A DNA stretch of 20,000 bases, from positions 168,103 to 188,102 of the forward strand of contig KZ538001.1 of NCBI GenBank assembly GCA_000934665.2. Direction: 5' to 3'. Made by a program: the position numbers and the translations under genes. Positions 860 through 20,000 of this stretch are shown here, one piece after another. The notes under the pieces are model-generated. The model was not told the DNA's origin and searched no databases. It saw only the letters and a program-made list of their open reading frames with translations. Position 1 is the first letter of the stretch. Each line of letters opens with the position of its first letter. The DNA is from Catajapyx aquilonaris. Taxonomy: Eukaryota.

Positions 860-1360
860 GATAGAATCACGATGGTTATTTTATCGTTGATAGGGAATAA
901 TTGATCTACTGGCGCAACTCTCGTGCCCATCTGCAGATCCCCAAATGGTGTGCAGGCCTGCTCGTGATGTAAAAGCTGGATTTGTTGAATGGGTTGCCAT
1001 TATGAAGGAGCTCACCAATCATAGGATTTTACCAGAACAGTTTTGCAGCTCAGTGGTGGAAAAACCCATCCACAAACCCATCTTTCTTCAGTCGTCTGGC
1101 TCTGTGTTCACCTGTAATGTTAATCACTTCTTTCACTCCAAATCCAACCGCAATACCAAGTCGATATTGTTCAGATGTTAAGTTGGGAATTAAATCTGAG
1201 CAGGTCGCCTATGGTAGGCTACTGTTAAGCCTATTGAGAGAGTGCAATAAGTAGCCTACACGTAGTAAATAGAAAAATACTGTGCTCCCACTGTGCCAAG
1301 TAATTCCCGGAGATTAGGTTCTATTCCATGAAAGTGCAGCAAAAATTCTTTTCCTTGCAG

Positions 1361-1513
1361 TACCACCTTCATCAATAGAGATTATGGATCATGCTCGGGG
1401 ATCACAGATAAGCATCAAAGAATCTGAGCAACTAGAACTTCAGTGTCGTGCAAGAAACGCCAAGCCACCAGCCACCATCATGTGGTACCGCAACAATGTG
1501 GAACTCAAACTAG
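1361..1513 (+). CDS. sns: sns/nephrin exon, first half of Ig domain (PPSSIEI...LQCRARNAKPPATIMWYRNN)
   Basis: Acceptor ttccttgcag| and donor g|gtgagt; open frame; Ig B-strand Cys and C-strand Trp. Not in the ORF track. Confidence 0.9.
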
Positions 1514-4500
1514 GTGAGTATTACCATTCTCAAGGAACACTAACAGTTTTCTAACATACTGTGCGTGCTCCTTGCAGACACACGAGAAGACCGAACTACA
1601 GAACACGAGGGTATGGAGGACGGGAAACGAGTGACCAAGTATGACTCTCACAGCAAAATCACTTTCCAACCCACTGCCAGTGATGATGGGTCACTCTATG
1701 CATGTGAAGCACGCCATCCTGCACTGTCTATCCCTGACAGAGTTGCCATCCAGCTCAGTGTAAAACGTGAGTAACACTCTATGTGACAATAATTACTATG
1801 TACAGAATGGTGGGATTTATTTTCTGTTTCTCTACAGATCCCCCAGGTCCACCTCACATTGAAGGTTACACAGAAGATGAAGTAGTACGAGTGGGGCTTC
1901 CCATCTCCCTAGTATGCATTTCTCGAGGAGGTAACCCATTGGCAGAACTGGTGTGGTTCAAAAACGATGTCAAAATCGACTCCTCCTACACCACTTCTAT
2001 TCGGGAATCTCGCAATGACTACACGTTCACAGTGGATACCAGTGACAACAATGCACGCTACCGATGTGAAGCTTCCAACCCCATGAGTCGTGCACCAATG
2101 AAAGCTGAAGTGAAACTGACTGTACAATGTAAGTAACTATGCCTGAATAAGAACTTGCACTTTTCAAAGGGTATGATTTAAAATATACATGTCGGTTCAC
2201 AGTCGCTCCAAAAGAGATCAGAATCAGTGGCCCCACTGAAGCAAAAGTAGGAGATACAGTAGCCTTGCACTGCAACACATCCAACAGTAATCCTCCAGCA
2301 GTTATCACGTGGTTTAAGGATGGTCTTCCAGTACGCCCATACACCAATCGCACTGTTGCTGTTGCTGATGGTGGGTGGATAACGTCCTCCAACCTTACTG
2401 TGGAGATTCAAGAAGATGACCGCAACTTGACCATCACCTGCCAGGCAGTGAACCAGTACTTGGGGGAATCCAAAGTTGCCGGGCATATGATTAAAATAAT
2501 TCGTAAGTAACTCCAAATTATATTCTTACAAGAACAGGTGCATAGTTAGGAAAGAGTAGGCCTTACTGGCATGCGGGAAGCAGCAGGGTGAGTGGTGGCT
2601 GGGGGCAGCTTGGCTGTGTCGCAAAGGCAAGGATTGATTTTTTGGATTTTGGAAGGGGTATGGTGTACCAACCTAACCTAACCAAGCCTAACCTTCCTGC
2701 CTTGTGGATACAGAGCTATCTTCAGCCATACACACCTATCTTCAGCAGATACATGCCTATCCTTGATCCTTGCCTTTGCGACACAGCCCGCTGCCCCCAC
2801 AACTACTACCCTCCCGCATGCCAGTAAGGCCAACTCTATCCCATAGTTATTGCCAGCATATACATGAAATCCACTAAGTCCAAAAAATCAGTTTTCTGAT
2901 AGTCAAAGATTTGACCTTGTACTTGTTTACATGCTAGTGAAGGCAGAAAATCCCGGTGTTGCTGGCTAATTATTAATCTTAGGACTAAAATCCAAATGGA
3001 CTTCACCAGATGACAGAGCTTTAAAAATGCTACCTAGTGATGTAAATAACTCAAAACCACCGAAATTGGCCTTTTTGGATTTCACTTGCTTGCTTAATAT
3101 GATTATATATCATACTCTCCACCCCACCGGGTATTCCATAATGCAACTTGCTCACAGCACCTTCCCCCTTGCTATGTCATCTGGTCACTTACTCACTTGA
3201 GGTGGCTGAGGCCAATGCATAACAGATTTCCATCTTTCCTAAGATACCTCCTCTTAGGATTTTCAAAGGAAAACCTCTCCCAGACTCAAACCACAATAGT
3301 GCACATCAGGCCTGGATGATGTGCTTTTGTCTGCAACAAAAATTAGCACCAAACACACTGGCATAAACTCTCATTGGTTTCTGGTACTTGAATTTCTGGT
3401 ATGAAATGACAGAATCAAATTCAGTGTGAATAAATTAGATTACACAGAAATGGCAGTCAATCATACATAGTTGAGTTATACAGGGTGTAAGTCAGGGCTA
3501 TTCAACTGGCGGACTGCGACGCTATACAGGACTGTTTGAAATAGCATGAAAAATTACAAATTCATGATTTTTTTGGAAAAAGTGCTACCAATTTCATCAA
3601 ATACCCATTCAAATCGCCCACATTCAGCTAAGCTCGTGTGACCTTGAACCCCCCCCCCCCCCCCCCANNNNNNNNNNNNNNNNNNNNNNNNNNNNNNNNN
3701 NNNNNNNNNNNNNNNNNNNNNNNNNNNNNNNNNNNNNNNNNNNNNNNNNNNNNNNNNNNNNNNNNNNNNNNNNNNNNNNNNNNNNNNNNNNNNNNNNNNN
3801 NNNNNNNNNNNNNNNNNNNNNNNNNNNNNNNNNNNNNNNNNNNNNNNNNNNNNNNNNNNNNNNNNGGGGGGGGTCTGGACCTTCAATGGCCCAGGAAAGG
3901 GAAATACTGGACCTTGTCATAAACTAGTTGAATAGCCCTGGTGTAAGTTATATGAATTCATCTGCAGGAAAAAAAGTAGGCACCAATTTATTGATGTGTG
4001 CAGGAGGAAACTGGTTTTGAGGGATCCAGTTGAATGCTTCTTGCGATTAGTACAGTATGTATACTATTGGGTTCAAATACTTTTGGCCACTTTATCATGG
4101 TCTTGACGCAACCCTTCGCACAGACTCCACATTAAGGAGGTGTGTGTGTGTGTGAAGGGTTGCTTCAAGACCAGGATAAAGTGGCCAAATGTATTTGAAC
4201 CTGATAGTGCATATCATAAGTAGGTGATACCATAACTACTTACAGAACCTCCTGGTCCACCCATGGTATATGGTTTTGGATCCAACCTGGTTGCTGGTCG
4301 CTTGCAGCGCATCACATGCATTGCTGCTGGTGGCAATCCAGTTGCCAGCCTTGCATGGTTCAAAGGCAACAAAAAGGTAATTGTAGATATTATTGATTAA
4401 TTGCAACAATTGGATTAACAATTTTTGTACCCACAGCTCAACTCTGTCTACAGTACAAATGGCAACTTGGCTTCATCAGAATTAGCTATTGTTGCCAATA

Positions 4501-7500
4501 TGTCAGACAATGGAGCTGAATATCGATGTGAAGCAACCAACAAGGCAACAAAGTCACCACTCACCAAAACTGTCACTCTAAGCGTGCTATGTAAGTCCCA
4601 TGAAGGGTGCATAAAATATATTCCTGCATATTACAAGTTGTTCTGACATTTTGTGATGTTTTTCATTTTTTAGTCCCTCCGGCAATGGTAAAGATTCGCA
4701 AACGCCCTCGCAAGTTGAAAGAAGGAGAGAAGGCATGGCTAATATGTGAATCAAGTTCAAGCAATCCAGCAGCACGCTTGACCTGGTGGCATGATGGACT
4801 ACCACTTCAGGGTCACAACAATGGCTCTCGGGATGGTGTGTATGGAGGCCAACAAACTGTAAACACACTTGAATTGGATGTGACAGCAGAGTTGGATGGT
4901 GCTGTATACACCTGCCAAGCTACCAATGAAGCCCTGCGGCAGAGTGTACATGATGCAATTGCTCTGGAAGTTCTCTGTAAGTATATGTGTAAGCATGCCA
5001 TTCCATAATACAGTATTTGAATTTGCACCTCTTCCTGTAGTTAAGCCGCAGTTCTTGGAGGCACCTTCAGCAAAGAGAGACATAACTGAAGGAGAGTCAG
5101 CAGTCATCAACCTGGAAGCACGTGCAAATCCATCTGAAATATCTTACACGTGGACTCAGGATGGGACACCCATTCCCAGTAGTGCAGAAGCTGGGTCAGA
5201 CCGGCATATAATTGCTTCTGGTCCACTTCTGAATGTGACAAGCGTGCGCAGAGAAGACGCTGGCACCTACATATGTGAAGCTGTCAATGCAGAGGGTTCA
5301 TCCGTTACTACTGTTCAGCTCAATGTGCAGTGTAAGTTCGAGTACTCTTAAAATAAGGTTATTGCATGACTGTTGTGCAATGATAATATGTTACAGATCC
5401 ACCACGTATAACATCATTGGAGCGCTGGGTTGTGGTTGGTGTAGGCGAAGATGTCCACATAGAATGTCAAATGGATGCTAACCCTCTGGAGGAAGGGATG
5501 GTGCGATGGGAGCGTGAAGGCTTTGACATAGCAGCCCGCACACGCCGATCCTATAAGCATCAAAGAGCATATCTGACAGTAGCAGAAGTGCAGCATGAGG
5601 ACACTGGCCCTTTTGATTGCATCATTAATAATGGAATTGGTGAAGAAGCTCGAGGCACTGTGGTACTCATCGTAAAACGTAAGTCATCAAGTCTGTATGT
5701 GAAATCCAACGTAATTCTATTGTATTGGTATTCACAGAGAAACCTCAAATTGATACCTCACCTCAAATGGCCAAGGCAGCCAGCGACCAGGGAGAAACAG
5801 CTCGTTTGTCATGTCGAGCAAAAGGTTCACCCAACATCACTTTTGCCTGGTCGAGGGAAGGTGCTACCATTGGAACCCAGATGACTGAGAAGTATGAAGT
5901 TCAAGTGCAACAGGTATATACACATTTCAGCAACATTTTTATACCCTGCTTGTACTTGGATTGCATGGCATTTTATGATCACAATCACAACAAAATCATA
6001 TACAATTACAGGTGGACTTTATAACTTGGGAATCAACACTGTTGGTCAAAACAGTTCGCTCAGTGGATTACGGTTACTATGAGTGTGTGGCTCATAATGA
6101 AATGGGCTTTGGTACATCTCGTGTTCTTCTGAATGTGACATCACGTCCAGACCCTCCATTCTTTGTCAAAGTACTAAATGTGAGCCATGATGCTGTGAGA
6201 TTGTCTTGGACCCCTGGTTTTGATGGTGGCTTGCAGCAGTCCTTCAGAGTGCGCTTCCGTGAAGAAGGAGCAAGTGGCTACCGATATGCAGATGTGCAAC
6301 CACCAAATGCCACCAGTTATGTTGTTGGGGGACTTAGTCCAGCAACACAGTACTCATTCCATGTTATGGCTCTGAATGGAATAGGGGAGGGCAACTACAC
6401 CAGAGAAATAGTGAAAGCAACCACCTCCAGTGAGTATTCTCAATAAACTTGCATGGCTGCTTAATATAATTCTTCTTTTGATGCATGATTATAATAGCAG
6501 AAACCAACTTATTGCTTCTCATGGGATAAGGTGACACACTAACTGCATGGGTAACGGTTGACATTTCTTCTTAGGTGAGGCCCCTCCTACAGCTACCTCC
6601 ACTTCTGATGTAGACTATCAGCCTGGCCAGATACCCAAGCTCCTAATCATAACTATCACCATAGTGGGGACTGCCCTTCTTGTGCTCAATGTAGTCTTGA
6701 TTGCCTTCTTCGTGCGCAAGCGCTCCAAGAAACGCATGACAGGTGAGTGGACAAACATTTATGTTGTTTTTTTTGCCCTCCTGGACGTGTAGGTGAGGTA
6801 CCTCTGGGTGACCGAGAGAGGCGGATGTCAGAAGCAATGGGGAACAAGGGGGAGATTCCCAGAATTGTCATAATTTCGGTCTCAGTTGTGGGCTCCTTCT
6901 TGTTAATCCTGAATGTGATCCTAGTCTGCTGCTTCATCCGACGGAAGAAGAGGAAGGCTGAGGGTAGGACAGAATGACCATTGTATCCCTAGTTTTAAGT
7001 GTTTGGGGTAGTAATGCACCTTGTTTAGGAGGGAATCATCAATAACCAGATATCATTTTTGCAGCGGCAAGTGACCAGGGTAGCAGCAAATCAGCCACCA
7101 TGGAAATGTATGCCCCAAGCAGCTACAATGAGACGGTGACAGGCGAAACACTCAGCTCTATTTCTGAGAAGAGTGAAAGCTACTCCAACAATGGCAGCAA
7201 TGAGGATTACATAGTCAGTAATGTTGAAGTCTCTTTGTACATGCAATGTTGGATCCTTGCTGTTTTTTTTTGAAGTGACAAATGATTCAGTCATGTGAAT
7301 GGCAGAAAGGCGGTCCCATGGTGTAACGGTAGCACTCTGGGCTTCCTAGTCCAGCAGTCCGAGTTCGAGTCTCGGTGGGGTTTGCCATCCATGTGTGATA
7401 GATTGGTGTTTCCTATGTAGCCTAACAGAGAAAATGGGGTGAGGGAGGCAGCAGGTATTACAACATCTGGAAATGTCCTGCATGCTTTTGAAGAAATTAA

Positions 7501-8310
7501 AAAGCATGTAATTATTTGTTTCAGTTGCTACTCTGAAATTGAAAGTGTACTCCCATTACAGGATGATGGAACAAAGCCAGCTGCAGCCAGCACTTACCTG
7601 ATTGACCAGATGGAACCTCCAGTGCAATACCCATACCATCCGACAGATCCTTCATCATCACGTCAAAATACTCTCACCAGACACAAGGCCAACAACATGA
7701 ATGTGGAGGATGACAGCTATGCTGATGCCCTCCGACGAAATGCCTACAACCAAACTTTGGGTAATGTTTTTGCAATACTGTGGCAAAACTAGTTGGAGCA
7801 ACAAATATCAATCATATCACTTTCAATATGGGGTAAAATTGTTCATATTTGGGTTATGATAATATTTCAATGTATTTCTTTCTAGGAGAAAAAGTGACAT
7901 ATGGCAAGAGCACCACACCCAGACCGTCCAGTCGTGCTGCTGCCAGTCCTGATACCTACTACAACATTGCTCCAGACTCCCGTTATGTGCCGTACCCACC
8001 TCCTGGATTTGGTCCTCCTGTGGGCAATGGCTCCATCCACCACCACCATCACCACCAAAACATCCCACCCACCAACGGGACCCTTCCTCGCAACAGTGGC
8101 AGCAACTCAGGGGGCCAGCCCGCCCAGAATGGACCTGTTGTGGTAGTGGGCTCTCCACCTCCCAGTGTCCGGTTGGGGGGATCCAGCTCTTCTCCTGTGC
8201 GGACAGCCGTTCAGGTACCACCGCTGCTGTCCACCTTCAACCCCAACCCCACCCCCAGCCCCACTAACATGGTGGAGGCAGGCTACGAAAACGAAGGTCA
8301 CCTTGTGTGA
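1361..8310 (+). CDS. sns: Nephrin / sticks-and-stones (Sns/SYG-2) family Ig-superfamily adhesion receptor, 5'-partial, 15 coding exons per isoform in the window
   Basis: GT-AG exon chain 1361-1513, 1578-1766, 1838-2128, 2203-2502, 4246-4376, 4437-4590, 4674-4976, 5041-5331, 5397-5678, 5738-5913, 6012-6429, [6575-6742 or 6793-6963], 7065-7213, 7562-7760, 7886-8310 joins in frame (3629 nt with the first TM exon, about 1209 aa). It encodes 8 Ig domains (C..W..D..Y.C patterns), an FN3 (LSWTPGFDGG), a TM, the Sns-type cytoplasmic motif MEMYAPSSYNETVTGETLSSISEKSESY and a C-terminal GHLV as recalled for insect Sns. Confidence 0.93.
1578..1766 (+). CDS. sns: sns/nephrin exon, second half of Ig domain (DDGSLYACEARHPAL)
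   Basis: cttgcag| ... c|gtgagt; within ORF 1565-1774. Confidence 0.92.
1838..2128 (+). CDS. sns: sns/nephrin exon, Ig domain (CISRGGNPLAELVWFKN...YRCEASN)
   Basis: tctacag| ... t|gtaagt; within ORF 1783-2136. Confidence 0.93.
2203..2502 (+). CDS. sns: sns/nephrin exon, Ig domain (CNTSNSNPPAVITWFKDG...ITCQAVN)
   Basis: ttcacag| ... c|gtaagt; overlaps ORF 2265-2510. Confidence 0.93.
2549..2841. mobile_element. Non-autonomous DNA transposon (MITE), GG termini, 8-bp TSD
   Basis: TIR GGA(A/T)AGAGT(A/T)GGCCTTACTGGCATGCGGGA extended by a subterminal inverted match (gctgtgtcgcaaaggcaaggat); flanking direct repeat CATAGTTA at 2541-2548 and 2842-2849; internal cctaac repeats. Confidence 0.85.
3493..3940. 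mobile_element. hAT-family non-autonomous element spanning an assembly gap
   Basis: Perfect 15-bp TIR CAGGGCTATTCAACT (3493-3507 / 3926-3940); perfect 8-bp TSD GTGTAAGT (3485-3492, 3941-3948). Confidence 0.88.
3668..3865. other. Assembly gap (N run) flanked by poly-C and poly-G
   Basis: 198 N. Confidence 0.99.
4062..4209. mobile_element. Small hairpin MITE, possibly Tc1/mariner-type
   Basis: About 60-bp inverted arms (actattgggttcaaatacttttggccactttatc... / ...gataaagtggccaaatgtatttgaacctgatagt) with a short (TG)-containing loop; TA on the left flank. Confidence 0.75.
4246..4376 (+). CDS. sns: sns/nephrin exon, first half of Ig domain (PPGPPMVYG...TCIAAGGNPVASLAWFKGNKK)
   Basis: cttacag| ... 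aag|gtaatt; read by hand. Confidence 0.9.
4437..4590 (+). CDS. sns: sns/nephrin exon, second half of Ig domain (SDNGAEYRCEATN)
   Basis: ccacag| ... t|gtaagt; within ORF 4425-4646. Confidence 0.92.
4674..4976 (+). CDS. sns: sns/nephrin exon, Ig domain (CESSSSNPAARLTWW...DGAVYTCQATN)
   Basis: tttttag| ... t|gtaagt; within ORF 4607-5008. Confidence 0.93.
5041..5331 (+). CDS. sns: sns/nephrin exon, Ig domain lacking the first canonical Cys (NLEARANP...DAGTYICEAVN)
   Basis: cctgtag| ... t|gtaagt; within ORF 4896-5351. Confidence 0.93.
5397..5678 (+). CDS. sns: sns/nephrin exon, Ig domain (IECQMDANP...DTGPFDCIINNGIG)
   Basis: ttacag| ... c|gtaagt; overlaps ORF 5417-5884. Confidence 0.93.
5738..5913 (+). 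CDS. sns: sns/nephrin exon, first half of last Ig domain (LSCRAKGSPNITFAWSREG)
   Basis: ttcacag| ... cag|gtatat; within ORF 5725-6024. Confidence 0.92.
6012..6429 (+). CDS. sns: sns/nephrin exon, end of last Ig domain plus fibronectin type III domain
   Basis: ttacag| ... a|gtgagt; DYGYYECVAHNEMG, then LSWTPGFDGG...LSPATQYSFHVMALNGIG. Confidence 0.94.
6450..6549 (+). promoter_or_regulatory. Candidate intronic splicing-regulatory cluster: 3x TGCATG (Rbfox motif) plus ACTAAC (branch point / STAR-family How motif)
   Basis: TGCATG at 6450, 6482 and 6544; ACTAAC at 6538-6543 abutting the third; all in the 145-nt intron before TM exon A. Confidence 0.6.
6575..6742 (+). CDS. sns: sns/nephrin transmembrane exon A (SEAPPTATSTSDVDYQPGQIPKLLIITITIVGTALLVLNVVLIAFFVRKRSKKRMT)
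   Basis: ttcttcttag| ... g|gtgagt; 168 nt, phase 1-1; hydrophobic helix plus basic stop-transfer; CACTAAC branch-like motif at 6537-6543. Not in the ORF track. Confidence 0.9.
6793..6963 (+). CDS. sns: sns/nephrin alternative transmembrane exon B (SEVPLGDRERRMSEAMGNKGEIPRIVIISVSVVGSFLLILNVILVCCFIRRKKRKAE)
   Basis: gtgtag| ... g|gtagga; 171 nt, phase 1-1, no stops; aligns with exon A; within ORF 6747-6977. Confidence 0.85.
7065..7213 (+). CDS. sns: sns/nephrin cytoplasmic exon (ASDQGSSKSATMEMYAPSSYNETVTGETLSSISEKSESYSNNGSNEDYI)
   Basis: ttttgcag| ... ata|gtcagt; Sns-type motif; phase-0 end matches the next exon. Confidence 0.9.
7312..7383 (+). pseudogene. tRNA-Gln-derived element / tRNA pseudogene with an 8-nt anticodon loop, intronic
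   Basis: GGTCCCATGGTGTAACGGTAGCACTCTGGGCTTCCTAGTCCAGCAGTCCGAGTTCGAGTCTCGGTGGGGTTT closely follows metazoan tRNA-Gln; intact A and B boxes and T arm; three G-U pairs in the acceptor stem; loop CTTCCTAG. Confidence 0.75.
7562..7760 (+). CDS. sns: sns/nephrin cytoplasmic exon (DDGTKPAAASTYLIDQ...YADALRRNAYNQTL)
   Basis: cattacag| ... g|gtaatg; within ORF 7439-7792. Confidence 0.87.
7886..8310 (+). CDS. sns: sns/nephrin terminal coding exon, Pro/Tyr-rich tail with His6 run and PDZ-binding-type end EGHLV*
   Basis: ttctttctag|; TGA at 8308-8310; within ORF 7849-8310. Confidence 0.92.
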
Positions 8311-9711
8311 AAGCTCAAGTGCCAGCTTGTGCTTTGATCTCAACTTTGCATTGCTCCTCCTAGCTCACAAGTTTTTTGGTGTTTTCTGTTTTTTTTTTGC
8401 TTCAGTTGAGACAAATGTTCTACTAGATGGCGCTCCCTCTGTTGTTAAGCAGCCACCATTTTTGCATTTTGTTTGTGGAAGCATGTGGACATTGTGTTAA
8501 AGAGGCCAAGCCTCTGGAAAAAGTGCCTTGACTGCATAGCCAGTAGACGAGGAGAGGTCAGTCGGCGTCTGCCTCACTGCAGCTGACTGACCAAAGTGCT
8601 CTTTTGGCCCTCCCATTTTCCCACCCCTCAGACACTCCCCCCCCCCCCNGTCCCCTGCTGCCACTTCATCCCACCTACTGTTGTGTGTTGTTAACGTTGT
8701 ACATACAAGTGAAAGTGCGCGAGTGAGTGCGAGCATGCTTCAGTGCTCAAGTTTTGTGTAAGGGACCAACTCATCCTCACCATATCTTTAGTTGCATTGT
8801 TTTTTTAATGCCTTGGCCATTATGTTAATTTTCCACCCTTGTTTAAAAGCTGTGATGCTCAATTCGGGGGGAGGGGGGTTGGTGAGGAAGGCTTGGGTGG
8901 GAAAGGAACTTGTGCCCCATTAATTATCAACCTCACCTACAGTATGTTGTTAGGAAAAAACTGCATTTTCTAGTCACCAACGATGGACTAACGTAGTGTT
9001 TGTTTTCATGTACCAAAGAAGGAGGGTGGTATGGAAGAGAAATCTCCCTTGCTTCTTCGTTTCCTTCCTCATGTCACAGAGTCAAAATGTTGCACGTATA
9101 ACGTGCAAGTCTTCCATGTTGTTAGGTTTGGTTTTCCTTTTTTGGTTAAGGCTTTGTGTGTAGCACCATTCTCTTTCCCAACCCTCAAACACTCGTTCCC
9201 TCAAGCAAGTGTGGCTCGAATGAGAAGCTGTGGACATTGTTATTGTTTATGAATCATTTGTACAAAATGGAAATGCTATTCATAGTTCAAGCCAAATGCA
9301 CTTTCTTTGTGTGTGTGACCTAGAGAATGAAAAGTATCACACTGCAGTTTAATCAAGTGCTACCTGGAAAAGTTCATCATGAGCAAACTTGCTTACCATG
9401 TCACCTGAAGTGGCAAGTAAGGTGTGTTATACAAGTGGCTCATTATGAACCAGGCTCCCAATTAGGGGAAAAATTTTATAATGTGCAAAGAAATAGCACA
9501 TTTCATCACAAATTATATTGACATTTGTCACTGGGGGCAGTAGCCAATACTCAATTTCACTGCAGCACTGTACCAATGAAGAAACCCTCTAGGCCAGTGT
9601 CTTTTTCCCTAGGCCTCTCCTCTCCTGACTAAAACAAGTAAACAGCAAGTATATGTTAATGTACTTAAAACATGTAAACATGAAGGTTTGTACCTAAGAC
9701 CTCAATGGAGG

Positions 9712-15030: not shown

Positions 15031-15212
15031 TAGGGTCAGTTGGGGTAAGTGCAGCAGGATTTTGATTAAGTGCAGTTTAAAGGGATGCTACTTCCTCAGT
15101 AATTAGCAAGTGATAAAAAAAGTAATGGACAATATACCCTACCTTATGGCTTTCAAAGTGACCTATTGAGTAATAATAATAAGAAGAAGATAATAATAAT
15201 AAGAAGAAGAAG

Positions 15213-15271
<59 letters not shown>

Positions 15272-16050
15272 CCTGGGTAAGTGCTTTCATCCCCGGTGGG
15301 GGTATATCACACGGAACCTTTATTGTACTATTATACATTGGAACCTACTCATTGAAACGCCTGGGCCCATGGGCAGGATGACAGGAGGGGATGTGCAAGG
15401 TGCAGTGCATCTGACGCTGTGGCCATTTTTAGTGAACTCCCCCGAGTGGTTTAGTCTGTGGAAATACCACCCGAGACGAAGCCAGAGGTGACCCTGAACT
15501 CTGCACGAGATGAAGGGGGTGTCCCCGGGTTGGGATCGAACCCGGGACCTTAACATCCGTGGGCGCATACGTTACCGCAGCACCACTCCGCCTCCCCCTT
15601 GGCCTATTGAATAACATCAAGACATTCATCTATGTGGGTGCTCAGTGCTGCACTTGCCCCGCGATATGGGGTAAGTGCAATTGTCGAATTCTCTCATGGT
15701 AATAAACATTGCTTGGGTTGCATATGACTAGTGCCACAAAGACACAAACTTCCTGTGTCAGTCTGTTTTTCCCAAATTAAAAAATGCGAAGAAGTTCTTA
15801 CAGGAAGAACTTACATTCACTGCTCCGCAACAGGTTGGCTAACAGTACTGGCATTATCTGATTAAAATGCATTATGTTGAAGTGTATTCTCACCAATGCA
15901 TTAGCATGTCACCAGTCGCGGAATATCTATTGGTTACCCACCAAGATGTATTGTTGCCTCTTTTGTCGACTGCTATCTTTATATTAATCCAATATTGCAT
16001 TTTGTTACACATGGCCTACCCATATTAATTGTTTATGCACTTGCCCCTAA
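15031..16050. mobile_element. Degraded DNA-transposon remnant with subterminal GGGGTAAGTGCA / TGCACTTGCCCC motifs; host of the minus-strand SINE
   Basis: Motif copies at about 15042, 15649, 15668 and 16037 in both orientations; TA|GGGTCAGTTGGGG start; right terminus not found. Confidence 0.35.
15174..15599 (-). mobile_element. tRNA-derived SINE (second family) with a long (TTA)n/(TTC)n tail
   Basis: Minus strand shows TGGTGCTGCGG (A-box-like) and GGGTTCGATCCC (B box); tail at 15171-15271; imperfect TSD TG(A/G)CCTATTGA(G/A)TAA at 15159-15173 and 15600-15614. Confidence 0.85.
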
Positions 16051-18886: not shown

Positions 18887-19337
18887 GGGGGGATCACGTG
18901 ACTTAGGGCAAAAGGGAGGCGGGAAGGCGAAATTAACATGGCGCCTTATGGGGATTCCGACTATCTTTGCGCCGTCACTGTCAGGCGCCTATTGGGACTA
19001 AAAATATGCAATGGGTACCAAATGATAGCTCCGCCCATGCCCCGTCTCATGCCGTACATCTTCATCCGAGAGGTTGAGCGGGGAAGGACATAAAAAATCC
19101 TACACTGTGTCATTGTTTCTCGCCGGAAGTGCAGTTTGTGTCACTACATCACTCAAACAACCACATTAAAATGTTCCAAATTTTAATATGCTGTGCAGAC
19201 AATCTTCCTCTGCATATTTCACCAACTCGAGGTTGCTTTAATTATCCGAAAATAAAAAGGTGAGCATATAAGTGATATCGGGACTTAGGGCAGCTTCAGT
19301 TAGGTCTGATTGATCAAAGTTCGCGCAAAACCTATAC

Positions 19338-19417
<80 letters not shown>

Positions 19418-19475
19418 TAATAGTAATAGCAGCAGCAGCAATAGTAGCAGTAATAATAATAATCATAATTGTGCC

Positions 19476-19548
<73 letters not shown>

Positions 19549-20000
19549 GGTTTTGCACAGACTTTGATCAATCAGTACCTAACTGAAGCTGCCCTGAGTT
19601 CCGATATCACCTATATGCTCACTTTTTTATTTTCGAATAATTAAATCAACCTCGAGTTGGTGAAATATTCAGAGGAAGATTGTCTGTACAACATATTAAA
19701 ATTTTGAACATTTTAATGTGGTTGTTTGAGTGATGTAGTGACACAAACTGCACTTCCGGCGAGAAACAATGACACAGTGTAGGATTTTTTATGTCCTTCC
19801 CCGCTCAACCTCTCGGATGGAGATGCACGGCATGAGACGGGGCATGAGTGGAGCTATCATGTGGTACCCATTGCATATTTTTAGTCCCAATAGGCGCCTG
19901 ACAGTGACGGCGCAAAGATAGTCGGAATCCCCATAAGGCGCCATGTTAATTTCGCCTTCCCGCCTCCCTTTTGCCCTGAGTCACGTGACCCCCCCCCCCC
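18887..20000. repeat. About 1.1-kb palindrome: two ~445-bp inverted copies around inverted (AAT)n/(ATT)n tracts, running off the window end
   Basis: 18887-19336 is the reverse complement of 19545 to about 19995 with roughly 20 differences counted by eye. Confidence 0.95.
19339..19546. repeat. Compound microsatellite (AAT)n-(AGC)n-(ATT)n
   Basis: Read directly; orientation flips at about 19471-19476. Confidence 0.97.

Follow-up and report, generated by a model that had tools for sequence, protein, structure and literature searches.

Studies of myoblast fusion, of the slit diaphragm of nephrocytes and podocytes, and of synaptic partner choice all have nephrin/Sns as a central model. A review (PMC10084454) describes nephrin/Sns proteins as single-pass receptors with one transmembrane (TM) segment. 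The locus studied here raises the question of whether one such gene can choose between two membrane anchors. It lies in a 20,000-nucleotide stretch of the Catajapyx aquilonaris genome (GenBank assembly GCA_000934665.2, contig KZ538001.1, positions 168,103 to 188,102 of the forward strand), which is called the window below and is numbered from its first letter. The original prediction placed two tandemly duplicated, probably mutually exclusive TM exons in a nephrin/Sns gene. We consider it likely that these are tandem paralogous exons of a nephrin/Sns/SYG-2-type receptor that are spliced as alternatives, with one membrane anchor per mRNA.

Identity and layout of the gene

A multi-exon gene runs on the + strand from about 1318 to 8310 of the window. 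A Pfam scan of the translated frames gave Ig matches in 10 of 15 (E up to 0.01), between 1318 and 6024, and a single fn3 domain (E 4.4e-14) in the frame at 5979-6446, which also carries an Ig match; the N-terminal part of the gene may fall outside the window or within an N gap. A run of Ig domains (C2/I-set) followed by one FN3 domain is the arrangement of Nephrin, Sns, Hbs, and SYG-2, receptors whose first Ig domain binds partners of the Kirre/Neph/SYG-1 group. As in that family, a single-pass TM segment and a tail with a conserved motif follow, and family members are the closest relatives. The best matches in a search with the FN3 exon were named nephrin-like or syg-2-like, the tail motif is common to proteins with those names, and the FN3 exon (6008-6429) is 56 to 58% identical to Daphnia nephrin-like proteins. 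Judged by its domain order (Ig domains, one FN3, TM, tail) and its best-named matches, the gene is of the nephrin/Sns/SYG-2 type, which bears out the identity first proposed for it. It shares with Nephrin, Sns, Hibris, and SYG-2 the order of Ig repeats, FN3, TM, and tail, and it would differ from the family as described so far in having an alternative pair of TM exons. The features that bear on this pair are as follows, with splice borders marked by a slash and joints taken from contigs of run X1.

4674..4976, + strand: Ig-domain exon (X1 joints 4590>4674 and 4976>5041; Ig_3, C2-set_2, and I-set matches)
5041..5331, + strand: Ig-domain exon (X1 joints 4976>5041 and 5331>5397; Ig_3 and I-set matches)
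6008..6429, + strand: closing part of the last Ig domain plus the one FN3 domain, ending in phase 1 with donor CCA/GTGAGT (contig piece from 6008, joint 6429>6575)
6430..6574, + strand: intron before exon A, 145 nt (joint 6429>6575, GT..AG)
6575..6742, + strand: TM exon A, 168 nt, phase 1-1 (in an X1 contig; falls in the A-type clade)
6743..6792, + strand: putative A-B intron, 50 nt (from the sequence; no A>B joint among those listed)
6793..6963, + strand: predicted TM exon B, 171 nt, phase 1-1 (from the sequence and conservation)
6964..7064, + strand: intron after exon B, 101 nt (spliced out along with exon B when A is used, 6742>7065)
7065..7213, + strand: first cytoplasmic exon common to both forms, carrying the conserved SKSATMEMYAPSSYNETVTGETLSSISEKSE motif (X1 joints 6742>7065 and 7213>7562)
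7562..7760, + strand: cytoplasmic exon (X1 joints 7213>7562 and 7760>7886, cut +1)
7886..8310, + strand: last coding exon, ending in EGHLV and a stop (contig to 8325; ORF end 8310)

The SKSATMEMYAPSSYNETVTGETLSSISEKSE motif of the first cytoplasmic exon lies downstream of both TM types in relatives.

Anatomy and divergence of the two TM exons

Both exons are open in the frame fixed by the upstream exon (end 6429, phase 1) and the downstream exon (start 7065), and the length of each is divisible by 3. Exon A is bordered by an acceptor AG at 6573-6574 and a donor GT at 6743-6744 within CAG/GTGAGT, and exon B by an acceptor AG at 6791-6792 and a donor GT at 6964-6965 within AGG/GTAGGA. Each encodes a stalk, a hydrophobic helix of about 25 residues with a VG..LL.LN core, and a basic cluster. 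The exon A peptide has a Pro/Thr/Ser-rich stalk and, past the helix, RKRSKKRMT; that of exon B has a charged stalk, a helix containing CC, and RRKKRKAE. The cytoplasmic end of the exon is thus basic in A (KKRMT) and closes on an acidic residue in B (RKAE).

The two peptides are identical at 17 of 43 positions, with 79% positives (E 2e-14, BLASTP with composition adjustment). Over the 43 aligned codons the DNA is only 49% identical and synonymous differences are saturated (pS 0.79, against a pN of 0.42), so the pair is an old duplicate and not an assembly artefact. A tblastn search with 32 TM-exon peptides found no third copy in the window, the remaining matches being translated microsatellites. 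The exons are adjacent, similar in length, identical in phase, homologous, and equipped with their own splice sites, as expected of a mutually exclusive cluster, and, like the alternative versions of Dscam1 exon 17, each specifies the TM and juxtamembrane part of an IgSF receptor. The sequence reading therefore agrees with the original prediction of two adjacent open exons of 168 and 171 nt in phase 1-1, each starting AG/GTGAG and each encoding a TM helix between a stalk and a basic stop-transfer segment. It agrees equally with the claim that the peptides are paralogous and the DNA heavily diverged. The further proposal of an old duplication with both copies under selection is supported by conservation elsewhere, exon B being 67% identical to the TM exon of a relative (P0001, below) and exon A 62 to 63% identical to a Daphnia A-type exon. 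The comparisons thus support reading A and B as old paralogues, each kept under constraint.

The first six nucleotides of both exons are GTGAGG. Joining the upstream CCA to the AG/GTGAGG exon start (6573-6580 and 6791-6798) would regenerate a donor-like CA/GTGAGG, and recursive splicing was considered on this account and rejected, since the GTGAGG start is not conserved in relatives, neither in Daphnia-like B exons nor in a metagenome locus with both exons (L005). It probably just encodes Ser-Glu.

Transcript evidence in Catajapyx

X1 was the only run to contain this stretch. It is not recorded as RNA, and its contigs are taken to be cDNA-derived because of the seven GT..AG joints in them. One contig of 1010 nt shows the joints 6429>6575, 6742>7065, 7213>7562, and 7760>7886, all GT..AG, and extends to 8325. 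The first two are among the junctions that had been named in advance as a check on the predicted exons, and both are present in this one spliced contig. Since 6429 is joined to 6575 and 6742 to 7065, the latter skipping 322 nt, exon A is used in this transcript and exon B is removed with both of its flanking introns. The A-to-B joint 6742>6793 is not among the seven X1 joints. Over exon B (bin 6797-6937) X1 had neither cover nor a joint, which is evidence neither way. Use of exon B in Catajapyx is predicted from its conservation.

Both exon types in relatives

A search with exon B led to the 527-aa product of a 2510-nt contig (P0001), in which FN3 is followed by a B-type TM exon and the tail motif. 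Further relatives came from phmmer with P0001, from the FN3-exon search, and from three cluster look-ups. With exon A, none of 218 candidates among longer proteins was a homologue at E≤0.01, a result that reflects the limit of the word index, and many A-type exons were found later by phmmer and through the clusters.

Pairs of single-TM isoforms with identical flanks, in which the TM exon is the sole difference, are on record for eight species, the labels A and B being set by similarity in those species for which isoforms are the only source. Four of these are Daphnia pulex, with X3 of the A type and X4 of the B type, D. magna (four A-type and five B-type entries), Pollicipes pollicipes (X2/X1), and Panulirus ornatus (X1, X2, X4, and X5 versus X3). 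The others are Anopheles gambiae (X1/X2), A. merus (X1/X2), Hetaerina americana (X2/X1), and Cacopsylla melanoneura (four A and two B entries). In six database models one protein has A followed directly by B, and never the reverse; they are from D. galeata, Timema poppensis, Trinorchestia longiramus, A. arabiensis (XP_040164783.1), A. gambiae (A0ABK8G7U0), and A. dirus. One exon per mature mRNA is thus what the A-only contig here and the single-TM isoforms of both kinds in eight relatives display, and the six tandem models do not. The first two of these are in line with the mutual exclusivity that was originally predicted, the third is not, and strict exclusivity in Catajapyx is a prediction.

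The same order, A then B, is found in genomic DNA at four loci, namely, the window and the metagenome loci L005, L002, and L003. In L005 the exons measure 240 and 237 nt, are both phase 1-1, and lie 38 nt apart (intron 3188-3225), and in the Daphnia-like L002 and L003 the A-B intron measures 492 and 720 nt, respectively.

A further contig, L001, has at 474-1307 an FN3 exon joined directly to a B-type exon, with about 255 nt before the next exon retained. It looks like a partly spliced RNA that had lost its upstream intron, and exon A with it, before the next one. A longer copepod model (P0271, Lepeophtheirus salmonis, 1201 aa) has a second, poorly conserved hydrophobic stretch past the first TM exon, possibly a second TM exon that has degenerated or was mispredicted.

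One TM type was seen in some other groups. Among the isoforms inspected, those of chelicerates have a single, B-like type (Centruroides, 11 entries; Trichonephila, 2; Tetranychus, 1; Ornithodoros, 2; Tachypleus, 2), and those of the centipede Strigamia a single type close to B, which is no proof that a second exon is absent from either genome. The calyptrate-fly hibris proteins (6 of the 16 listed) likewise have one TM type. Isoforms of Centruroides and Trichonephila (P0154, P0155, P0157, and P0164) vary in whether a short insert, such as VLQRLAKLCQ, follows immediately on the TM basic cluster; by these sequences, the juxtamembrane region of chelicerates is also alternatively spliced, in a different manner.

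Age of the duplication

The final tree was built from 32 TM-exon peptides over 59 columns, with 200 bootstrap trees. All 13 A-type exons fall in one clade with support of 96/98, present in 98% of the bootstrap trees (80/61 with 24 rows), in a test that the similarity-based labels lean toward clustering; the exon order in the tandem models and genomic loci is independent of those labels. The B-type exons do not separate in this tree from the single TM exons of chelicerates and the centipede. When foreign peptides were compared with the window by tblastn, exon A was the best match for 12 of 12 A-type peptides and exon B for 10 of 11 of the B type, with one tie, and five of seven peptides from single TM exons preferred exon B. 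Exon B is also 56 to 57% identical to the TM exons of scorpions and spiders.

Because the A-type exons form one clade and the B-type exons resemble the single exon of chelicerates and the centipede, we read the pair as the product of one duplication, older than the divergence of the branchiopods, barnacle, malacostracans, and insects sampled. On the same comparisons we read B as the conservative copy, of the ancestral type, and A as the derived copy.

How one anchor might be selected

Alternative use of the two exons would yield two single-pass receptors with the Ig/FN3 ectodomain and the signaling tail in common. They would differ in about 55 residues, comprising the extracellular stalk, the TM helix, and the first cytoplasmic residues. 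Exon A has consensus splice sites, and exon B has a weaker donor (GTAGGA) and a pyrimidine tract set back from its AG, which would make exon A the default here and exon B the regulated choice.

The 50-nt A-B intron is shorter than the intron at any of the seven confirmed joints (64 to 348 nt). It would have to hold both the pyrimidine tract and the branch point of exon B, and the likely branch point would lie within about 20 nt of the exon A donor. So little room would be left between that donor and that branch point that joining of A to B would be sterically blocked here. In alpha-tropomyosin, a branch point too near the donor of the upstream exon blocks the joining of the neighboring exons 2 and 3. 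The A-B introns of 50 and 38 nt would act likewise, unlike those of the Daphnia-like loci, whose lengths place them outside the steric scheme. To our knowledge, the Dscam1 exon 17 pair is not separated by a minimal intron. Steric exclusion is thus plausible here and in L005. Given introns of 492 and 720 nt in the Daphnia-like loci, it cannot be the general mechanism, and the means of exclusion may differ between lineages.

Those long introns, found where isoforms nonetheless carry a single TM segment, are a reason to weigh another account of the exclusion, in which the exons are alternative and the choice is enforced by regulators or by long-range RNA pairing, the 50-nt spacing being incidental. 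We regard it as a serious contender, though an unlikely one. Immediately 5' of exon B, L002 (about 525-565) and L003 (about 828-868) share a conserved block of intron sequence (around CCCAATTTGCATGTTTGT), a candidate splicing control element. An inverted-repeat scan of 6400-7100 for competing RNA pairing returned 15 weak pairs, none convincing, the best being 20 nt at 70%, so strong complementary arms around the exons of the window were not found. Moreover, introns of 38 to 50 nt at two of the four genomic loci are hard to see as chance.

Improbable, in our view, is that exon B is an unused relic in Catajapyx, a second copy that merely persists while only the A isoform is made. The sole transcript evidence here does contain A and skip B, and the donor and acceptor context of B is weaker than that of A. 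Against this, exon B still has an open frame along its 171 nt and two intact splice sites, despite saturation of synonymous sites between A and B. Its similarity to the TM exons of P0001, scorpions, and spiders, and the annotation of B-type isoforms in eight other species, argue in the same direction. Routine inclusion of both exons in a protein with two membrane spans, suggested by the frame-preserving lengths and by the six tandem models, is highly improbable given an X1 contig that runs from exon A straight to 7065, single-TM isoforms of both kinds in eight species, and an A-B intron (50 or 38 nt) below any confirmed intron of the gene, and a number of the tandem models resemble read-through predictions made ab initio. 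Since both exons are multiples of 3, double inclusion would keep the frame, yet a second span would put the conserved signaling tail outside the cell. Alternative splicing of two tandem TM exons, one per mRNA, accordingly remains our preferred reading.

Known analogues and possible function

In Drosophila, Dscam1 exons 17.1 and 17.2 are mutually exclusive, and each carries a TM and a juxtamembrane segment; TM1 is dendritic and TM2 both dendritic and axonal (PMC7685093). Like Dscam1 as described there, the nephrin-type gene would be an arthropod IgSF adhesion receptor with alternative TM/juxtamembrane exons, a common ectodomain, and most of the tail in common. It belongs to a different gene family, and an effect on isoform localization is established for Dscam1. 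By analogy with Dscam1 TM1/TM2, the switch could tune sorting, lateral TM contacts, or stalk cleavage in a cell-type-specific manner, and a sorting role for the isoforms is advanced here as a hypothesis.

Arthropod N-cadherin exons 18a and 18b form a mutually exclusive pair that holds the single TM domain (PMC2655722). According to that source, the two paralogues are about 36% identical, orthologous copies are closer to each other than paralogous ones, and the duplication is older than the split of Daphnia and insects. The depth and pattern of duplication match those of the nephrin-type A/B pair, and N-cadherin is the closest analogue, although a cadherin and an IgSF nephrin are different proteins. 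The same source reports no localization difference between the N-cadherin TM isoforms, so the analogy gives no guarantee of a sorting role.

For nephrin, sns, and hbs, no account of alternative TM exons turned up in the literature searched. A TM switch of the nephrin type thus seems to be undescribed, though it resembles Dscam1 exon 17 and N-cadherin exon 18. The statement in the original prediction that none had been described for the family holds for this literature; isoforms of both kinds are already annotated in RefSeq/UniProt for several species.

Nephrin/Sns has been treated as a one-anchor protein, and a conserved choice between two anchors would add a level of regulation not studied so far. 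With Dscam1 and N-cadherin as the other cases, it would point to TM/juxtamembrane swapping as a recurrent way for arthropods to reuse one adhesion ectodomain in several contexts. At its fullest, the proposal would be that a two-way anchor switch predates the divergence of crustaceans and insects and makes this the third unrelated arthropod adhesion receptor with swappable TM exons. The choice of A or B would assign the ectodomain to myoblast fusion, nephrocyte diaphragm, or synapse through sorting or through partners at the TM level, and exclusivity would be hard-wired in some lineages by an intron that is too short. We put this combined proposal forward tentatively and think it rather doubtful as a whole. 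The anchor choice is directly testable in Daphnia, Anopheles, and other tractable species, and steric exclusion has a clean natural test in the inter-exon introns of 50 and 38 nt.

Other features of the window

Several minor features accompany the gene. An assembly gap (N run) at 3650-3870 falls inside one of its introns, and a single N lies near 8649 in the 3' region. The tail exon (frame 7837-8310) contains a run of six His residues. The EGHLV end (8290-8310) may be a C-terminus of the PDZ-binding type, and GHLV is also the C-terminus of P0001 and of the Timema protein. Farther downstream, long microsatellites of the AAT/ATT type occupy 15183-15290 and 19238-19644.
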